Assembly (NCBI GenBank): GCA_964016885.1
Contig: OZ024743.1
Span: forward strand, 7,750,001-7,814,000
Direction: 5' to 3'
Source of the DNA: Eledone cirrhosa
Lineage: Eukaryota
Length of the DNA stretch: 64,000 bases
Below are positions 6,480 to 61,445 of the stretch, piece by piece. Position 1 is the first letter of the stretch. Every line of letters begins with the position of its first letter. Under the pieces are notes generated by a model. That model was not told the DNA's origin. It searched no databases and was given only the letters and a program-made list of their open reading frames with translations. A program made the position numbers and the translations under genes.

Positions 6480-8765
6480 ACGCAGTGAAACCGGAGGCAG
6501 GAGGAAATGTAGCAAATAAAATAAAATGGCAATGAAGTGTCACATTCTTGCGAAAGAGGGAGGAGTATTTGATGTTGGTGAACTGGTGCTTCAGCATTGG
6601 AAAAGGTTTGGAATGTTTGAAATCAATGTGAACAATCTGATGGGACAGATAAGGAAAATGAGGCGGAGTAATTGGCTCACTAAGGTTGAATTAGAAGCCC
6701 TGGAAGTTCAAAGTATGAAATATTAATGCTGAACGTAACTTAGATAATACGAATGTGGAAAGTGGGAAACAGAGATCAGAACGAAAATGAATCAAGCGAG
6801 GAAGAATTATCCTACCAAACTGGAGAAAATGATGAACCACTAAATGTGGAGAGACTGGAAAATAAGTGACTGATGATGTACAGTTTGAAAGTGTGAAGAA
6901 AATGAAAATGAAGTAAAGGAAGAAACAAGACTGATCATCAAAAAGATTGAGAGACCTGTTTAATGATCCTGGATTTAATAATACGCCGCTGAATCTTCGG
7001 TATATATAGATAAGTCGTTTCGCAAGTGAAACAGCCAAAGTAAACCATACAATAATGTATATAGAGACGAATGGTATAACCGACTTGAGAAAGTTAATGA
7101 GCGTTGCAGTGTTTCTGGTGGATGAGCGATTAATTGTTAAGCAAACTGAAAGGAAGTATTGGCAGGAATCTTGGTGGAACATAAGACTGAAAGTTGATAT
7201 AACTCAGCTCAGAAAAGATCTAGGAAAATAGATGCATGGCATAGAGGAAAATGGAAGACCAAAGTAGGGGAGAATCAACGCATAAAAATGAGGTATAAAA
7301 TAAGTTGAAAGTTTGAATGTAATGAAATATAAGAAGAGGAATATTTCAAAGAAATACCTTCTTACCATTGCTCTTTGTGATTGCCATGATTCCATTATCG
7401 ATGGTCTTACGGATATAGATATTGACCACCAGATGGAAAACAGAGGACCTAAGATCAATCATCTACTTTTCATGGGTGATCTGAACTCTTTGGCAGGAAT
7501 TAATCTCAGACTGGCTAACTGGTCAAAACTGTCCATTGGTGTTGCGGGGAAAGTGTGTTATCTTAAATATTAATAGAAGTAGGCATGTACATAGTGGTGG
7601 GATTGAGTTACCCGATGGTGAGTCGATTGGTGACCCTGAGGATAGTGGGCAATTTGGAGCTTGACAAATTTCTAAATGAAAAGATGAAAGGAAATATGAA
7701 GGAAATCTATCTAAATAGGTTAGAACTGCTACTGAAAACGAAATTGGATGGAAAGAACTTAATTACTGCTATCAATGTCTGGGCTGTGCCACTTATTAGA
7801 TATAATGTGGCTATTTTGAATTGCTCCAAAGACGAAATAGAGAAGTTGGATATGTTAACGCGTAAGAAAATGGTTGACAAAGGTGCAAAGGTAAATGCCA
7901 TCAGGCTCTGTACAACACGGAAAGCAGGCGGCCAAGGACTTGTAAGATAATTTGAAATAGAAACGAAGGAAGTAAAAGTAGAATCTTCATGGAATTGGTT
8001 GACAAAAGGTGATTTTAAAAGAGAGACAGAAAATTTATTATTAGCTGCTCAAGATCAAGCACTAAATACAAACTCGATAAAGAATATGTATAACTCAGAT
8101 GAAAAAAAGAAGTGTAGGTTATGTGGGAAGTAGGTGGAAAATGTGACACACATCGTGAGTGCCTGTGACATGCTTGTGCAGAAGGATTTTAAAAGGCGTT
8201 ACGATAAAGTGTGCATACACCTCCATTGGTGTTTATACAATAAATATGGGTGTGCAACCACTGAAAAATGATATCGGCACAAGCCAGAAGGGGTCCTAGT
8301 AAATCAGACTATAAAACTCTTGTGGGATGTTATACTCCAGACACACAGAGTTCTTGAAATACAAGGCCAGACATAACTTTGGTGGAGAAAGGTACTGAAA
8401 GATGTTTGTTGATTGATGTAGCCTGCCTAGGAGACCATTGCATCAATGGTAAAGAAAATGAGAAAATTGCAGGGCATGCAGACTTGAGAATAGATGTCGA
8501 GAGAATGTGGAATATGAAAGCAATTGTGATTGGAAAATGTGGGTTGGTGACAGAAAACCTTCAGAAAAAACCTTGATAGAATTGGAATCAGCCCCAGCAT
8601 TACGACATTGCAGAAAAATCACTTTTGGGAACAGAAAATATCCCGCGGAAAGTACTGTCTATTTGAGGTTACATAACTTGACAGAGTCAATTAAATGATC
8701 CAGTGTTAATAAGATTCTCCCTGTGCACATGAATAACAATAATAATAATAACAATAATAATAATG
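6480..8765 (+). mobile_element. Decayed, internally deleted R4/Dong-like non-LTR element (RT, Zn knuckle, RLE) with (TAA)n tail
   Basis: INHLLFMGDL (RT motif C); AINVWAVPLIRY; ETENLLLAAQDQALNT; KCRLCGK.VENVTHIVSAC; PDITLVEK...CLLIDVACLGD (RLE); ends in AATAATAAT. Confidence 0.85.
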
Positions 8766-13910: not shown

Positions 13911-15145
13911 CTTATATAGACATATCAAAACTCAAACAAACAATGTAGAGAGCAAACAGAGTAGATGATAGAAAATAAAATAAAAGATATCTTGGTCCTT
14001 AATAAAATCAATAACAAAACGACAAAAACTGAAAAAAAAGAAGCAAGTATTATAGAATTGTAAAATAAAATTAAAAAAAAACGAAAACAATTAGCCGAAA
14101 TCAAAGACTAAAACAAGAGAACGCCACTAAATCACAAAGAAGCACCAGTGTTACAAACGGCAAAGATTCCCTTGAAGAGACTTAGTTCGACTCCACCAAC
14201 CCAAAACGTGTTTATATAAACCCAGATAAAAAGTAAAATAGAAATCAATGCAGTCCTAGCAGCATGTGAAGTAAATGTTGTGAGGCGGGATTATGGAGAA
14301 TGATAACATTAGCAAAACAATAATCGAGGAAGGCCATAACAACAGGAAAAGTAGCACAGACGATGCAAAAGACAAACAATTGGAAGACGTCAGGATATGA
14401 TAGAACCACCATCTATGCGTTAATGTATTTAACAGGGAAATATAAGGTACTAGCAGAGATGTTTAATAAGTTAGTGACGGCGCCGGAGATAGAACTCGAT
14501 TGGTTCACTAAGGGGAAATTATCTTAATCCCTAAGACTAATGAAACAGCAAACATTAAAACAACATACCCATAAACTATCTCCTTACAGCTCACAAAACC
14601 TTAACTACAATAATATCACAGAATAAAAGAACATCTGGGAAAAATGACCTGTTTCCTAAAGAAAGGATAATGTAAAGGCTCACTTGGTTGTAAAAATCAG
14701 TAGCCATAACCGAAAGTTGTTGAAGGAGAAATAAGGGTTTGAGTGTGGCATAGACGGACTACCAGAAGGAGTTTGACAGTGTTTCGTGTTTCTCATATGT
14801 GGATGAATAAGACAGTATCAAAAATAAACAGATACTTTAAGAATAGCATGAATAAATGGCAAACAACTCTGCAGATATCTGTATCTGCAGAGTTGTTTGC
14901 CAAAAGAAGGAATTACAAAATCTCTCTATCTTCACTAGAAGAGCAAGCATTCTAAAAAGACTTCTCTCAACTCCTTTAAGTACCTTTAATCAACATTTGA
15001 AACAATACAAATTATATAGGAGGGCAATGTTCCTTGTATATACTATTTTATATATATACTATTATATATACTATTATATATGTATATACTATTTTATATA
15101 TATATATATTAATTCAAAATATTAAAAAATATAGACATTCATGTA

Positions 15146-15230
15146 ATCAAATATATTTTATTATATATATTTCGGAGGTACTGTGCTGTTTCCTCAGTAC
15201 GTCCTCATCAGATAAAATATATAAATTGAT
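15146..15230 (-). ncRNA. Type I hammerhead ribozyme H1 (inverted arm)
   Basis: Minus: AUAUUUUAU-CUGAUGA-GGAcGUACUG..CAGUACcUCC-GAAA-UAUAUA-UA-AUAAAAUAU. Confidence 0.8.
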
Positions 15231-15427
15231 GTATAACATACCTCAACTGTGCTGATGGTTCAATTCCAGTCTTGGCAGTGATTAATTATAACAAAACTCA
15301 ATATTTATATACCATATTTTATATACCAATATTTATATACCATGGTATATAAATATTGAGTTTTTGTTATAATTAATCACTGCCAAGACTGGAATTGAAC
15401 CATCAGCACAGTTGAGGTATGTTATAC

Positions 15428-15512
15428 ATCAATTTATATATTTTATCTGATGAGGACGTACTGAGGAAACAGCACAGTACCTCCGAAATATATATAATAC
15501 AATATATTTGAT
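15428..15512 (+). ncRNA. Type I hammerhead ribozyme H1
   Basis: CTGATGA at 15447; stem II GGAcGTACTG/CAGTACcTCC; GAAA at 15485; stem III TATATA; AUA site with cleavage predicted after 15496; one mismatch in stem I. Confidence 0.8.
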
Positions 15513-15661
15513 TACATGAATGTCTATATTTTTTAATATTTTGAATTAATATTAATAACTCCAGAAAGTTTTTCTGTTGAGTGCTTCTAATCTATTGTAA
15601 AACTATATTCATTGATTAATCAATGAAACTTGTTTAACTTTTGGTTATATATATATATATG

Positions 15662-15703
<42 letters not shown>

Positions 15704-15710
15704 CATATAC

Positions 15711-15770
<60 letters not shown>

Positions 15771-16499
15771 ACGACCTCAAGTTATACGTTCAAGGTAATA
15801 AACTACTAGAAAGACAATTGCAGATTGTGTACAGGTTTACTGGAGGAATTGATATGAAACTCAGATTAGAAAACTACGTCGAGTTTATCTTAAAAAGAGA
15901 GAAACATTAAGGACAGCAATATGAATACTTAGGAATCAATAAACGAGATTGAGTATAAGATACACAAAGAAAAAGTTGGGAAGGAGTGTTATAGATCAAT
16001 ATTAAATGCAAATAATAAGATGATAGTCATGAACACTGTTGCAGCTAATACCAACAAATTGTATTTATCATGAATATAATTATCATACGTAATTATAAAA
16101 TTATTGTAGAATACCCACTGAAAGGATTACAAAAATATTTAATAAAGAATAAGGGAAAACTCATGAAATCATAACAAAACAAGAAAAAAAAAAAACTGTT
16201 TTCTCAAAGAAGCCGGGAGTTTCTGCACCAAATGGAAACGGTCAAATGTTTAATGAGGGTATTAAGGTCAACACATTTGGCTGAGAAAAATATATGAGAA
16301 TCACGAAAAAAAAAAAAAATACAGTAAGATGAACCGTAATTAGGAGAATATAAGAACTTATAATCCAAGGCAAGGTAACCTTGAGGTAATAAATAGAAAC
16401 CAAGTGCAAGATGAAGAAATGAAAAAAAAAAAAAAAAATAATCAGAACAAATTTTGTTGAAATATCCGAAACTTCTCATGAAGCGCGCTTATTATAAAT

Positions 16500-38787: not shown

Positions 38788-38816
38788 AGATCAAAAGATG
38801 GTTAAAGGAGTTCCAT

Positions 38817-38888
38817 GTATTTTATTATGCGCATTTCAAAAACAAACATCATCATGCAATAATATTTGTGTTTTCATCAGATAAAACA
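38817..38888 (-). ncRNA. Type I hammerhead ribozyme, H1-related
   Basis: Minus: UGUUUUAU-CUGAUGA-AAAcACAAAUAUUAUU..GAUGAUGUUUGUUUUU-GAAA-UGCGCA-UA-AUAAAAUA. Confidence 0.8.
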
Positions 38889-39040
38889 GGAGAACATGAT
38901 ATGAAGGCTAAAAAACACTTGTGGATAGTGCAGTTTTAAATCAACATATTATATTATGTATACTCCAGTCCTACAAATTGTAGAGTGCTTCTTATCCGAT
39001 ATCTGCATTGCTTTATTGTACTACAATAAAACTCACCTCC

Positions 39041-49091: not shown

Positions 49092-49158
<67 letters not shown>

Positions 49159-49198
49159 ATATATTAATAAATGGAAACTATATTTATAAAATCATAAT

Positions 49199-49264
49199 TA
49201 TTTTATTATATATATTTCAAGGGTAACCAAGGCAAATTTTTGTGCGCTTTCATCAGATAAAATA
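49199..49264 (-). ncRNA. Type I hammerhead ribozyme, H1-related
   Basis: Minus: UAUUUUAU-CUGAUGA-AAG...CUU-GAAA-UAUAUA-UA-AUAAAAUA, between (TA)n tracts; stem II is weak. Confidence 0.7.
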
Positions 49265-49315
49265 CAAATTTGTTTTATAAATATTGACATACCCGCATAA
49301 ATTAAATATAACCTC

Positions 49316-49512: not shown

Positions 49513-49563
<51 letters not shown>

Positions 49564-49594
49564 TATAAGTATTAATAAAATAGATGTTGTTTTG

Positions 49595-49664
49595 ATCAAT
49601 TACATTTTATTATACATATTTCGGATGTACAACAGTACGTCCTCATCAGACAAAATATAATGAT
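49595..49664 (-). ncRNA. Type I hammerhead ribozyme H1 (inverted arm)
   Basis: Reverse complement of 49751-49820. Confidence 0.8.
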
Positions 49665-49750
49665 ACATGACATACCCTGAGATGTTAAATGGTTAAGATT
49701 TACTACCTTGATTAAATCTTAACCATTTAACTTCTCAGGGTATGTCATGT

Positions 49751-49820
49751 ATCATTATATTTTGTCTGATGAGGACGTACTGTTGTACATCCGAAATATG
49801 TATAATAAAATGTAATTGAT
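49751..49820 (+). ncRNA. Type I hammerhead ribozyme H1
   Basis: AUCAUUAUAUUUUGU-CUGAUGA-GGAcGUAC(UGUU)GUACaUCC-GAAA-UAUGUA-UA-AUAAAAUGUAAUuGAU; stem I about 15 bp. Confidence 0.85.
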
Positions 49821-49948
49821 CAAAAGAACATCTATTTTATTAATACTTATATTTTAATATTTTAATAACTCCAGAAAATTATTTTTGCCGTTGAGTGCTT
49901 CCAATCTACTGTAAAACTCATTCTTTGACATAATCATTGAATTAACAC

Positions 49949-50012
<64 letters not shown>

Positions 50013-52106
50013 ATCTGTATCTCTGTGTGTGTATGATGCACACACACACACACACACACACGCATATATACACATATATGTGTGTATGATGCATACATAC
50101 ACATATATGTGTGTATGCACACGGGTGCATAGTTCTGTCAGCAGTACACATCATAGATAGTGTTCGACATCCTTTAACAAAGTGTTTCAATCCCCAGTAA
50201 TAAGTTAATGTAGCCATTTAGTATTGCATTGTGGTGGCGGTGGTGGTATGGTGGTGGCGGCGGTGGTGAAGGAAGTGCTGGTGGTGGTGGTGCGGCTGCT
50301 GTTACTAAATCTTGCCGCTGCTTCTTCCTTTGCAGACAGGAGGTTGATGTTACCTCGGTTAGGTCACTATCAGTTGCTACTGAAGAGACGGACATGTGCG
50401 TGTAAGATGCAAAAGCAAAATAGACGAGAAAAACAACACAAAACAAGTAAAAACAAGAGAGACGAGCAGGCAAGTGAAAAATACAAGAACAGTGAGTAGA
50501 AGTAGTATAGAAGGAAAGTGGCGTCCTATTAACATGTGAATTTTGGTTGATGTGTATTGGTTGGTAATTGACTACAGATGGGATACAACACTCATACGTA
50601 CAGAGACGCTTTCAGATGTATATAATCACATATAATACAACTTTTGTTGATAGATGTTTTAATTTGAGAGAACGAACATTGAATAGACCCAAACAATTAT
50701 TATTGTGAAGTATTCTTGTAATATGTGGAATATACAAACGTATATGTAAAACAGAATAGGTTCAATGAAATAATGATTTATAATTTAGGCACAAATGTTA
50801 GGAGGGGAAAGTCGATTATATCGAGCGCAGTTCTTTACTGGTACATTTTTTTTTATCGACCCCTGAAGAATGAAAAGCAAATTTGACCTTGGCGGAATTT
50901 ACACTCAGAACGTAAAGAGCCGGAACAAATGCTACTAAACACTTGAATACCGCCATAAAAAAATTAATAATAAAAAAATACACACATATTAATTTAAAAT
51001 TTGTATGTTATTATCACAAAAATTATTTTGCGATATTTTTGAATATTTATTAATCAACTAAAATAATTATTTCAATTTGTAAATAGATTCAACTCCTTTA
51101 GTAATTTCCGTCATTGGACTGCGATCACACCGTGGTCCCGCTTACAAGGTTTTAGTCGATCAGTACTCATTTAAGAAAGAATATGTTACATTTTGAGGAA
51201 CTTTTTAAAACCTTTTATTTAACCAGTAAATTTTTAATTTGTAGATAGATTCGTAAGTTTCTCAGTGGCAGGCTTTCAAATTATACAAAACACAGTGCCC
51301 CCCCCCCCCCGCCCCTCTCTGAAACAACGAGAGAACCTCTATGTCAAACTCAGGGTTGGTAAAGGTAGTAGTGAAAGTATGTGAGTTAAAAATTTCAAGT
51401 AGATTGTTAACATCATTATATACACACAAAAAAGATTTCTAATTTAGATATAAGACCAGCAATTTGATCATAGGATCGATAGTTACTTTATTTTATCAAC
51501 CGCCAACGATGAAAAACAAAGTTGCCCTCGGTGGGATTTAAAATCAAAACATAAAGAGCCGGGAACAAATACTGCTAAACATTTATCCGACGTTCTCACA
51601 ACTCTCCCAATCCAATATTTGGCACCACTGTTCTAAGTGTTCGTTCGACCTGTTGGTAATAGTATTCAAGTTTTTCTCAAATTATACACTATTTTGTTTT
51701 AAAAAGGAAGTATAAATTAGATTACATAGAGCGTTTCACATAAAAAAGACAGGAAGGCCACGACGGGAACGCTTTTAATGGCATGTCTGTCTGCTTTCTG
51801 CTTGCCTGTCTGTTTAGTCCCTTCTCTCCTCGCCCCTCCCTCTCTTTCACCTTACAGACTCAAATGTACATAATCTACTTCTAACTTTCAAACACATACG
51901 CACGTACAAACACAAACAGACAAAACAGACGCACACAATTACATACAAACAGACACGCACACGAATTCTATAAATTATGTTAAGGAAAGCTATTACATAC
52001 TTTTAATTCTTCAATAAATAGGTTATATATATGTATATATATATATGTATATACATATATATATATATATATATATACATACATAGAATCTCATCTATAT
52101 TAAAAC

Positions 52107-52409: not shown

Positions 52410-52446
52410 CCTTTACCGGTTTCGCAGTTCTTCTGCTTTTCAAAAG
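52410..52446 (-). ncRNA. Degenerate minimal hammerhead
   Basis: Minus: CUU-uUGAAaA-GCAG(AAGAA)CUGC-GAAA-CCGG-UA-AAG; two core substitutions. Confidence 0.45.
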
Positions 52447-52470
52447 TAGAGTTGAGATGGAGGGTCTGTG

Positions 52471-52658
52471 GTTTTAATATAGATGAGATTCTACAGGACT
52501 AGAACTGTTTCATTCTTTAGAAATCATCAGATGATTTCTAAAGAATGAAACAGTTCTAGTCCTGTAGAATCTCATCTATATTAAAACTTTTATACTCTGC
52601 TATGTATTGAGTACCTTACTTACTGTGGTTACCTCCGATTCAACCCGGAATAACGTAC

Positions 52659-58960: not shown

Positions 58961-60686
58961 ATCGTAATAGAAGACCAACTGTAAAGAGATAAATCTCAAT
59001 GAGACCACTACGGCCAAGAAAAGTATGTATATAATCATCAACAATGGTAATACGAGAGAAATCGAATTACATTGAGACTTCACCATATTTAGATCATGAT
59101 ATATATTGCTAAGTTGTCCCATTTGACATCGTAAATCATATGAATTATAAGCATGTTTGGCGACATCTCTCTCAAATCTCCATAAAATGTAGCAAGAAGC
59201 GACTTATATTTTGCACATTTTAGATAACATATCACCCACAAATCAGTAATAAGTAGAGAATATTTCAAATATACCTACTATTTGGCACATTTGATATGGC
59301 AGGGACGAAAAACTATTGCTTGAATATAATCTATCCTTAAAACAACCGAGTAGTGTGTGCGTGCGTTCTTTTAGACCTAGCAAGACGAAATACGAAATAT
59401 ACAACCACATATTGAGGTCCACGGATAGAACGCTTTTTAGCATAAGTCTGCTCAGTCAAGACTGACCCGAGGATATACAACAACAAAAAACAAAAATGCT
59501 CTTCCTGCTTACAGCAGTGAAATCCTTTGATCTGGGGACCAGCATTCTAACTACATAGGCATCTGACATTCTTCATTTGTGTATAAATTCCATTTGTTTG
59601 ATTTCTTTTGACAAGTGAATAACTTCAGTATGTAATACGTTTAGACAGTCAGATACTTTTCCTCTTCTTTCTCTTTCTCCAATACACTCATATATTTATT
59701 TTGCCTTTAGCTGTTATGTAAATTCAATTTAAGGTTATATATGCTTAGCTAATTACTTAATTTCAAAATTTACGGATTACAACATCAAAATAATGCATTT
59801 AGAAAACATGATATTTTGAAAGAAGACAAGGAATACATTGACTAAAACGTTTGCATTTCTCCACACAAATTAATTCATATAGATTTCATGTTATTTGATT
59901 TGGTATAGAAATATTAGTGTCAATTTTCTTCGCCCTTTATTAAAAGAAAATGCAATGAGAAATGTTATTCTTAATTAACTAAAATATCCAGTAGCTTGAT
60001 TATTCTATATATCTAGATTGTGAAATAGCTTTAAGTTTCGCAATATATATCTTTCATCGTCATGTGTAAAAGTAGTAAAACAGTAAATTTTCCCTAAGCT
60101 AATATGAAACTAAAAAGTAAAAAGGCGGTAACCGGTATCACTAGCTATGTAAGAAAAGCCCTTATTATGCTAAAGTCTATTTCAGACGTAACATTTAGTT
60201 TAAACTAGACTTCCAAACAAACATATTACAATCTCTAATATTATCTATAGATGATATGAGAAAGGATTTGTGGAATCAATCATTATTAGATAAGACTTAT
60301 AACATAACTGTGACATATTATTGACATAATATTCTAATTGCAAGAGGTAAGAACAATACAATATATTCAGCTCCCTACTAAACATAAACACACCCATTCC
60401 TACATATATACATACATACACACTCACACAAACACACATATATATTATAAAGAATCAGGACCCGACGACTCAGCTCTTGCTGTTTCAACAGCTAGTTCCA
60501 GACTCGCATATATATATATACATACGAGGGCAATCCCAAAAGTAAGGTCTCTAAAGCGATGGGGACGCAGAGAAAGTGTTCGTACGGCTGTTGGCAACAC
60601 TGTTGTGATTGGTGCTTCATTCACTCCTAAACAAGCATGCGCGCGCTTCGCTGGGATACTCAATCTTGGCTTGGCAGCCGTTGAGA

Positions 60687-61030
60687 ATGGAGCTCCCGTT
60701 GAACGCTACCGAAGTGCGAAGTTCGCGCAGTTATTCAGTTTTTGAACGCAAAAGGCGTTGAACCGATTGAAATTCATCGCCAATTGACGGAAGTGTATGG
60801 ACAGTCGTGCATGGATGTCAAAAACGTTCGCAAGTGGTGTAGAGAGTTTACAGCCGGTCGTACTGAAATTCACGACGAACAAAGAAGCGGGAGACCGTCA
60901 ATTTCCGACGAGACAGTCGCAAAGGTTGAGGAAAACATGCGTAAAGATCGGCGGATCACTCTGGATGCTCTCTGCATTTTGCTTCCTGAGGTTTCCCGAA
61001 GCACCATCCACAGGATTTTAACGGAAAAAT
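60687..61030 (+). pseudogene. Truncated mariner transposase N-terminus (HTH), with a 2-bp deletion near the start
   Basis: FLNAKGVEPIEIHRQLTEVYGQSCMDVKNVRKWCREF..GRTEIHDEQRSGRPS...RKDRRITL...SRSTIHRILTEKL; no DD34D domain. Confidence 0.85.
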
Positions 61031-61267
61031 TGCGACTGTCTCGTCAGAAATTGACGGTCTCTCGCTCCTTTGTTCGTCGTGAATTTCAGTACGACCGGCT
61101 GTAAACTCTCTACACCATTTGCGAACGTTTTTGACATCCATGCACGACTGTCCATACACTTCCGTCAATTGGCGAGGAATTTCAATCGGTTCAACGCCTT
61201 TTGCGTTCAAAAACCGAATAACTGCGCGAACTTCGCACTTGGCGGTAGCGTTCAACGGGAGCTCCAT
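61030..61267 (-). pseudogene. Truncated mariner transposase N-terminus, inverted arm
   Basis: MELPLNATAKCEVRAVIRFLNAKGVEPIEIPRQLTEVYGQSCMDVKNVRKWCREF...DETVA. Confidence 0.85.
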
Positions 61268-61445
61268 TCTCAACGGCTGCCAAGCCAAGATTGAGTATCC
61301 CAGGGAAGCGCGCGCATGCTTGTTTGGGAGTGAAGGAAGGACCAACCACAACAGTGTTGCCAACAGCCGTACGAACACTTTCTCTGCGTCCCCATCGCTT
61401 TGGAGACCTTACTTTTGGGATTGCCCTCGTATATATATATATATA

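Follow-up and report, generated by a model that had tools for sequence, protein, structure and literature searches.

A head-to-head pair of 5'-truncated Penelope-like element ends in the genome of Eledone cirrhosa and its probable origin by twin priming

Inverted, 5'-truncated copies of Penelope-like elements (PLEs) that carry a tail on one side have already been published (PMC8557442, PMC3846280), and an inverted form and an internal promoter of these elements are treated in PMC2377424. According to the parts of these reports that deal with insertion structure, the tail is 30-40 bp long, the targets are AT-rich, and the junctions show palindromes and microhomology (PMC3846280, PMC8557442); in a rotifer pseudo-LTR, a TATA box and the sequence TCACT have been described (PMC3846280). 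Among the endonuclease-bearing PLEs, the Hydra clade is marked by the DKT and RWK motifs, a CxCx5C linker, the absence of CCHH, a hammerhead ribozyme and (TA)n targets, and its elements are generally shorter than 3 kb (PMC8557442). The hammerheads of metazoan PLEs are of the minimal or canonical type I, of which dimers are expected to work and monomers to cleave poorly (PMC4209133), and related motifs cleave weakly or only with protein (PMC4209133, PMC11167929). PMC8557442 describes as undefined how the inverted repeats and tails come about, and PMC3846280 put forward self-priming on an antisense template. For an anole Penelope element, two internal reverse-transcription starts that bound the tail have been demonstrated in vitro, both strands were cut and extended, both strands used the same start sites without difference, and a protein dimer was predicted (PMC11167929). 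In LINE-1, untemplated G at full-length 5' ends is regarded as the signature of a copied cap (PMC4859970).

Here we characterize a window of 64,000 nucleotides from the 3.0-Gb assembly of Eledone cirrhosa (contig OZ024743.1, positions 7,750,001 to 7,814,000), together with related copies elsewhere in the genome. The module at 15106-15644 of the window, H1, is a head-to-head pair of 5'-truncated Penelope-like ends (pseudo-LTRs), and the locus is an ordinary dead insertion. The inverted arms span 15106-15552, of which 208 bp are 99% identical (15106-15312 against 15345-15552). The left arm, an inverted copy on the minus strand (15106-15342), has its short end at 15106, at +56 relative to the ribozyme cut, and beside the pivot a 28-nt stutter made of two extra 14-nt units. 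The right arm is a direct, plus-strand copy that runs from 15343 to the short-end position at 15552. Both truncated ends are joined at a CCATGG palindrome (15340-15345), with its centre between CCA and TGG at 15342/15343; from this pivot it is 37 nt downstream to the likely transcription start site and 155 nt to the cut site. A TATA-like box (15346-15354) and an Inr-like TCACT follow on the plus strand, in the interval 15346-15381. The tail, whose TAATAACTCCAGAAA motif begins at 15553, comprises 92 nt between the short and the long end (15553-15644, plus strand); in full-length copies this stretch is the 5' untranslated region that precedes the open reading frame (ORF). The position of the boundary is uncertain by up to 4 nt, because its final letters, ATAT, could derive from the TA target.

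H1 interrupts a decayed frame at the Y-M codons of the sequence YMDDLKLY, which we take to be a LINE reverse-transcriptase motif. Remnants of decayed LINE reverse transcriptase are present at 14300-15036, 15769-16100 and 7567-7950 of the window, the first of which hosts H1. An AT-rich run of TA repeats and short interspersed units (15037-15105) starts at the TATAT of the Y-M codon pair and flanks the left arm, and on the right the tail is followed by a (TA)n run (15645-15768) and then by the remainder of the host remnant. A DNA search for relatives of the host LINE gave best matches of 73-77%; in a protein search, two of eight relatives were readable and uninterrupted (53% identity), with TATAT alone at the site. 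Because the uninterrupted relatives have TATAT alone, the long TA-rich runs probably formed at the time of the insertion or later, as judged from this one case. Empty target sites were found at none of 18 loci.

The module at 49555, H2, has the same structure as H1 and comes from a sister family. Its left arm (49555-49702, minus strand) has the short end at 49555, a hammerhead core at 49649 with the predicted cut at 49611, and extends 92 nt upstream of the cut; the right arm plus tail (49702-49952, plus strand) has the core at 49766, the predicted cut after 49804, the short-end position at 49860 and a small deletion in the tail. The arms are 98.6% identical over 146 bp (49555-49700 and 49715-49860). 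The earlier note on this DNA had described the two modules as diverged, as having the inverted arm stop just before the tail, and as carrying hammerheads on both strands, and the present results bear this out: from the start site to the long end H1 and H2 are 69% identical and the stem II loops of their hammerheads differ; the H1 arm stops at 15552 with the tail motif from 15553, and the H2 arm stops at 49860 with the motif from 49863, after two T that are absent in the family copies; and cores are recognized by motif and fold at 15447 and 49766 on the plus strand and at 15211 and 49649 on the minus strand.

Other parts of the window carry related features. A third hammerhead family, with a rewritten stem II, is represented at 49157-49280 (minus strand), 300 bp from H2, by a single arm that ends near the short site in a TA run, and at 38790-38900 (minus strand) a fourth motif that resembles a hammerhead, and has the palindrome TGCGCA at stem III, runs into a TA run. 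Two related short matches to the hammerhead core, at 479 and 34769 (minus strand), belong to another family. The region 52420-52600 contains a small palindrome centred at about 52530, with short repeated end pieces between TA runs at 52085 and 52165, and likely represents the ends of another Penelope-like family. A second type of foldback, with arms of about 410 bp at about 97% identity, occupies 60509-61445 between TA runs; its arms are derived from a mariner/Mos1-type transposase gene (HTH_48 and HTH_32 matches).

A type I hammerhead motif is present in every arm of H1 and H2: stem I has 11 bp, stem II is bulged, and stem III has 2 bp and a palindromic loop; the pseudo-LTR hammerhead has the core, the stems and the cut triplet. 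In the H1 left arm the motif occupies 15151-15222 (minus strand; core start 15211, predicted cut 15162, 11 of 11 pairs in stem I), and in the right arm 15436-15507 (plus strand; core start 15447, predicted cut after 15496, 10 of 11 pairs in stem I), where stem II is long. An Rfam scan of the window gave no match at the gathering score, and the ribozyme call is accordingly based on motif and fold. By analogy, these motifs fit the weak, dimer-dependent hammerheads of animal PLEs (PMC4209133), with which they have in common a long stem II with an extra base and a short stem III with a palindromic loop; unlike those described in the corresponding part of that work, stem I here is long, with at least 11 bp, and the two motifs of H1 lie on opposite strands, so that no tandem dimer is formed on one RNA. 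A functional bidirectional ribozyme was rejected as a reading of the two-strand arrangement; the antisense hammerhead would be a passive by-product of the inversion.

A 29-mer from the H1 ribozyme has 784 exact matches in the genome, against none for the reversed control, and the repeat is therefore not due to chance. The foldback is a by-product of a coding Penelope-like element and not an element in its own right. At one locus (L181) a 3.8-kb H1 foldback contains thumb and endonuclease fragments, and two loci (L189 and L192) are its H2 counterparts, with the same fragments. A genome search with reverse-transcriptase DNA returned 60 loci, in 11 of which the pseudo-LTR or the tail continues into the ORF; the ATG is located 315-328 nt from the likely start site, past both the short and the long end. 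The H1 and H2 ends enter or follow broken ORFs with a YRDD core, a thumb and VY...YIG endonuclease motifs (L181, L192, L211, L196 and L230), an assignment based on motifs; for seven ORF pieces, Pfam gave nothing above the cut-off, the best being RVT_1 with an E value of 0.023. Tandem junctions of the order 3' region, pseudo-LTR, ORF are found in L211, L215, L230 and others, and inverted pairs are present as well. Both families have LVKSDKTNNLY, with DKG changed to DKT, and RWR, not RWK. In the translations of L181, L189 and L192, inspected by eye, the CxCx5C linker is present and CCHH is not, a single Cys is found between VY and YIG, and CxxC and CxH are present near the end of the endonuclease; a regular expression spanning the whole Cys/linker stretch gave no match. 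In nearly all loci examined the intact short and long ends adjoin TA runs, and the tail, of about 92-96 nt, is one-sided and optional in the family.

By these motifs, H1 and H2 appear to belong to the Hydra clade of endonuclease-bearing PLEs, with which they agree in DKT, RW(R), the CxCx5C linker, the lack of CCHH, the hammerhead and the (TA)n targets (PMC8557442). They differ from the published clade marks in having RWR for RWK and, in L181, a 3' untranslated region of more than 1 kb; the complete unit is likely longer than the length given there for the clade as a general figure (PMC8557442). Compared with the insertions described in PMC3846280 and PMC8557442, those found here are alike in the head-to-head inverted 5'-truncated copy, the one-sided tail, the AT-rich targets, the junction palindromes, the microhomology and the TATA plus TCACT of the pseudo-LTR, and unlike in the tail of about 92 nt; most insertions here measure 170-550 nt. 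H1 and H2 are new families of a known kind, whose structure is itself published. A DNA foldback transposon or MITE was rejected, given the unequal ends (short and long), the centres that vary by locus and the frequent single arms. Retrozymes are head-to-tail tandems of non-coding hammerhead monomers without an ORF, and this identity was also rejected, both families being the ends of ORF-bearing elements.

The earlier note had read the fixed boundary as a defined step of integration, a reading that holds with one addition, that the boundary is one of two 3' ends and is used by single copies too. We analyzed 90 H1 loci covering 97 of the first 100 listed matches of the 29-mer (contigs 1 and 2), and kept 86 insertions after removing four duplicates. 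By automatic call, 46 arm ends were short, 27 long and 13 other; 34 of the 46 short-site arms stop exactly at +56, the long end lies at about +150 from the hammerhead cut site, and among the 13 others at least four are long ends of diverged subfamilies and some are broken by later insertions. The ends are fixed in most of the 86 insertions. Because the same ends are used in single copies and in pairs, in H1 and in H2, the boundary belongs to the element, as a fixed 3' end, and not to the foldback as such; two such ends match, by analogy, the two reverse-transcription starts reported for the anole element (PMC11167929).

Paired copies follow a strict rule. All 38 H1 foldbacks in which both outer ends could be read combine one long and one short end (31 by automatic call and seven by eye). 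This set was selected by the ribozyme 29-mer alone; the rest of the 86 comprises six insertions with one end lost or unclear, one with an odd end and a tiny long partner (L118), one whose partner end was unread (L141), and 40 for which no adjacent partner was detected. In the 30 top-scoring H1 loci, selected for the tail, 18 adjacent partners are present, and every one of them stops at the short site. In H2, where the short end has the same +56 offset, 15 of 16 score-ranked loci are long plus short and one is long plus long, and the sets anchored at the start site gave 14 of 14 for H2 and 11 of 11 for H1 (three of these 11 are shared with the first H1 set). Arms of kilobase length obey the rule too (L181, L189 and L192). 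The arms of L046, the sole long-plus-long pair seen, have private changes in common and differ by a 3-nt deletion.

The motif with which the earlier note had marked the tail is the beginning of a hairpin-like element, RCTCC-loop-GAGYGCTT, found in H1 at 15558-15586 (plus strand), 5 nt past the short end. A second copy is placed 8-9 nt past the long end in the 11 tandem junctions examined, three of which have an altered CTC. The outer pair of the motif passes from A-T at the first copy to G-C at the second; across all loci there are 183 distinct matches to the motif pattern, chance ones included, of which 136 have A-T and 13 G-C. The predicted hairpins are weak, from about -1 to -9 kcal/mol, and in several copies, including three of the four at the H1 long site, the minimum-energy structure is a different one. 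From its position, we infer that the motif is a candidate for placing the reverse-transcription starts.

The pivot had been considered variable. Most pivots do differ by locus, but they are not freely variable: 33 of 92 H1 arm starts (in the range -175 to -30) fall within the 6 nt from -121 to -116 (p = 2e-22 against a uniform distribution), at a TATA/Inr-like site, and in 20 of 34 pairs one arm or both start at this hotspot. In the genome, 287 copies with a perfect following 23-mer start exactly at the hotspot A, with a base other than C before it, and 191 copies run at least 4 nt past it; in H2, 618 copies start at the equivalent base. About 30 nt upstream of the hotspot there is a TATA-like word in both families, with TCACT at the site itself; TATA-like words are frequent in DNA this rich in AT. 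The hotspot A (15379 in H1, 49702 in H2) is likely the transcription start. H2 of the window begins exactly there. H1 extends 37 nt past the likely start site, and its template was for this reason likely a read-through RNA.

The base that precedes the hotspot is G in 49 of the first 100 H1 matches and in 39 of the first 100 H2 matches, whereas in the antisense arm 15% of the bases are G. The partner arm could have templated about half of these extra G (six of 15 in H1, plus two with one mismatch, and six of 12 in H2), so that a cap reading rests on the remaining ones; these, by analogy with LINE-1, look untemplated, as a copied cap would be. An extra G after a plain TA run is present in L153, L176, L177, L266 and L282. 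Among arms that extend exactly to the start site, those with the short end prevail, with 24 short and two long of 30 in H1 (L153-L180 set) and 16 short and seven long of 29 in H2 (L261-L290 set). The same pivot junction recurs at independent loci (L065, L066, L083, L150, L151, L165 and L173). With one base added, the start-site end is almost self-complementary over a stretch of 7 nt, and judging from this sequence two full-length cDNA ends could anneal with each other.

We consider it probable that the palindrome consists of two joined 5'-truncated Hydra-clade ends that arose in one twin-priming event on a capped RNA, from one short and one long start. The element protein would cut both strands of TA-rich DNA, and each side of the cut would prime a DNA copy of the same capped sense RNA of the element, one from the short start (+56) and the other from the long start (about +150 from the ribozyme cut site), and the hairpin-like motif immediately 3' of each start would fix its position. 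Synthesis of either copy would go on until it aborts or reaches the RNA cap (the hotspot, with the extra G), microhomology of 0-7 nt would serve to join the two cDNA 3' ends, in many cases with templated stutters such as that at the H1 pivot, and the gaps would then be filled in. The tail would be the stretch present in the long copy alone.

A template that snaps back on itself is unlikely to have produced these pairs, even if part of the evidence agrees with it. In this reading, published for head-to-head structures (PMC3846280), one cDNA or an antisense RNA template folds on a small palindrome, primes itself and is copied as far as a fixed nick; junction palindromes are in fact common, including CCATGG in H1 and the recurrent start-site junction of H1, and subfamily alleles are common to both arms. 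The relative reach of the arms speaks against it: among 34 pairs the short, tail-less arm reaches further in 11, the long arm in nine, and both stop within 5 nt of each other in 14, and six long arms (L135, L114, L170, L171, L268 and L272) are wholly inside the tail, with no overlap with the partner. Since arms may be non-overlapping and either may be the longer, copying back from one cDNA needs later deletions and two primers do not, although later loss of palindrome centres could also yield unequal arms, which counts against twin priming. Single copies, moreover, use both ends, and both arms can end at the sense start site (L136, L107 and L038), which is not expected with an antisense template. 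The common alleles also bear on a two-step origin, by a second inverted copy inserted into the 5' end of an older one or by later recombination with deletion of centres, which we hold to be very unlikely. Elements are indeed found inserted in one another's TA runs, in vitro the protein of the anole element nicks the pseudo-LTR of that element (PMC11167929), and the arms drift apart, many of them by several changes (0-12 differences in 119 columns); but independent insertions would often mix subfamilies, and in 21 pairs the arms are discordant at 6% of the subfamily-diagnostic columns, against 41% for random pairs. Two steps would also yield short-plus-short and long-plus-long pairs, and the pivots have no TA run. 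Both arms are of the same subfamily, and the partner arm is the nearest relative in four of 23 pairs (three ties, 16 not), so that 'same RNA molecule' goes beyond the nearest-relative result.

The earlier note had further suggested that a read-through transcript forms more than 200 bp of dsRNA that sequesters the ribozyme and could serve ADAR or Dicer. The length applies to H1 (208 bp) and not to H2 (146 bp). Sequestration agrees with folding predictions, in which read-through RNA of either strand forms a stem of more than 200 bp (-354 kcal/mol) with a stem II probability of about 0, against 0.97 for RNA from the likely start site; a function for it is not supported, since no host gene is evident in the window, with no host exon evident among its 48 long open frames. 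Rare changes in genomic copies amount to 20 A>G against 12 T>C, with no clear excess of A>G. Use of the dsRNA by ADAR or Dicer would be physically possible, and is not needed to explain the palindrome. That a non-autonomous foldback element moves as a unit, with its dsRNA as a selected switch, is highly improbable, given that pivots are mostly locus-specific, with the recurrent ones linked to the start-site hotspot, that the arms diverge, and that both families are the ends of a coding element. An assembly or library artefact, produced by chimeric fold-back reads, has next to no probability. None of the short-read contigs and RAD-seq reads on 15130-15630 spans the whole H1 pivot and the only raw-read run is empty at the centre; these are short-read runs on a repeat with hundreds of near-identical copies, and the depth is dominated by other copies. 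Perfect mirrors and arbitrary ends would be expected from chimeric reads, whereas the arms differ by substitutions, their ends obey the short-plus-long rule and the junctions carry templated inserts; contigs from public runs show foldback joints of the family near the hotspot (possibly from the source sample and not independent).

The twin-priming reading can be set against two known systems. LINE-1 twin priming uses the poly(A) tail for the first primer and a variable second site, and little is duplicated; here, in contrast, the two sites are internal and do not vary, and the palindrome is the duplicated overlap. Alike are the priming of one RNA by two target ends, which gives the inversion, and the untemplated G at full-length 5' ends (PMC4859970). 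The anole Poseidon element PAc, in the part of its description used here, resembles these families in the two internal starts downstream of the hammerhead that bound the tail, and, on the present proposal, in the cutting and extension of both strands of AT-rich DNA (PMC11167929). The ORF of PAc begins inside the ribozyme and the starts lie within it, whereas here the ATG comes after both ends; unlike in PAc, each end here has its own copy of the motif (PMC11167929). Use of the start sites by both strands does not by itself give the strict short-plus-long rule. The strictness of that rule, in line with the dimer predicted for the anole element, hints that a single complex may allot the two starts. 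In the open-access literature we found no twin-priming account of Penelope inverted repeats, and three text supplements of PMC11167929 contain no mention of inverted, tail or palindrome.

As a tentative extension, which may well prove wrong, integration in the Hydra clade could be a programmed form of twin priming, in which a dimer holds one capped RNA through the two hairpin copies and gives one start to each break end, both copies run to the cap and are joined, and the TA runs come in part from telomerase-like restarts. H1 itself sits where the uninterrupted relatives of its host LINE have TATAT alone, and reiterated ends are present at two loci: in L181 (3955-4015) the terminal 14 nt of the short end occur four times, and in L012 the long-end hexamer plus TA occurs three times; these ends look as if priming had restarted at the same site. 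If true, the programmed form would replace antisense self-priming and would bring pseudo-LTRs, tails and inverted repeats under one rule.

What is added to the descriptions of inverted PLE insertions in the cited portions of PMC3846280 and PMC8557442 is the quantified, strict short-plus-long rule for the ends, the start-site hotspot with its extra G and the non-overlapping arms, all of which bear on the question of mechanism. These young, high-copy families constitute a genome-scale record that favours two primers on capped sense RNA, and they name the exact bases involved: the two start sites, the motif beside each, and the transcription start. Because PLE reverse transcriptases are the sister group of that of telomerase, such a priming rule would be of wider interest.
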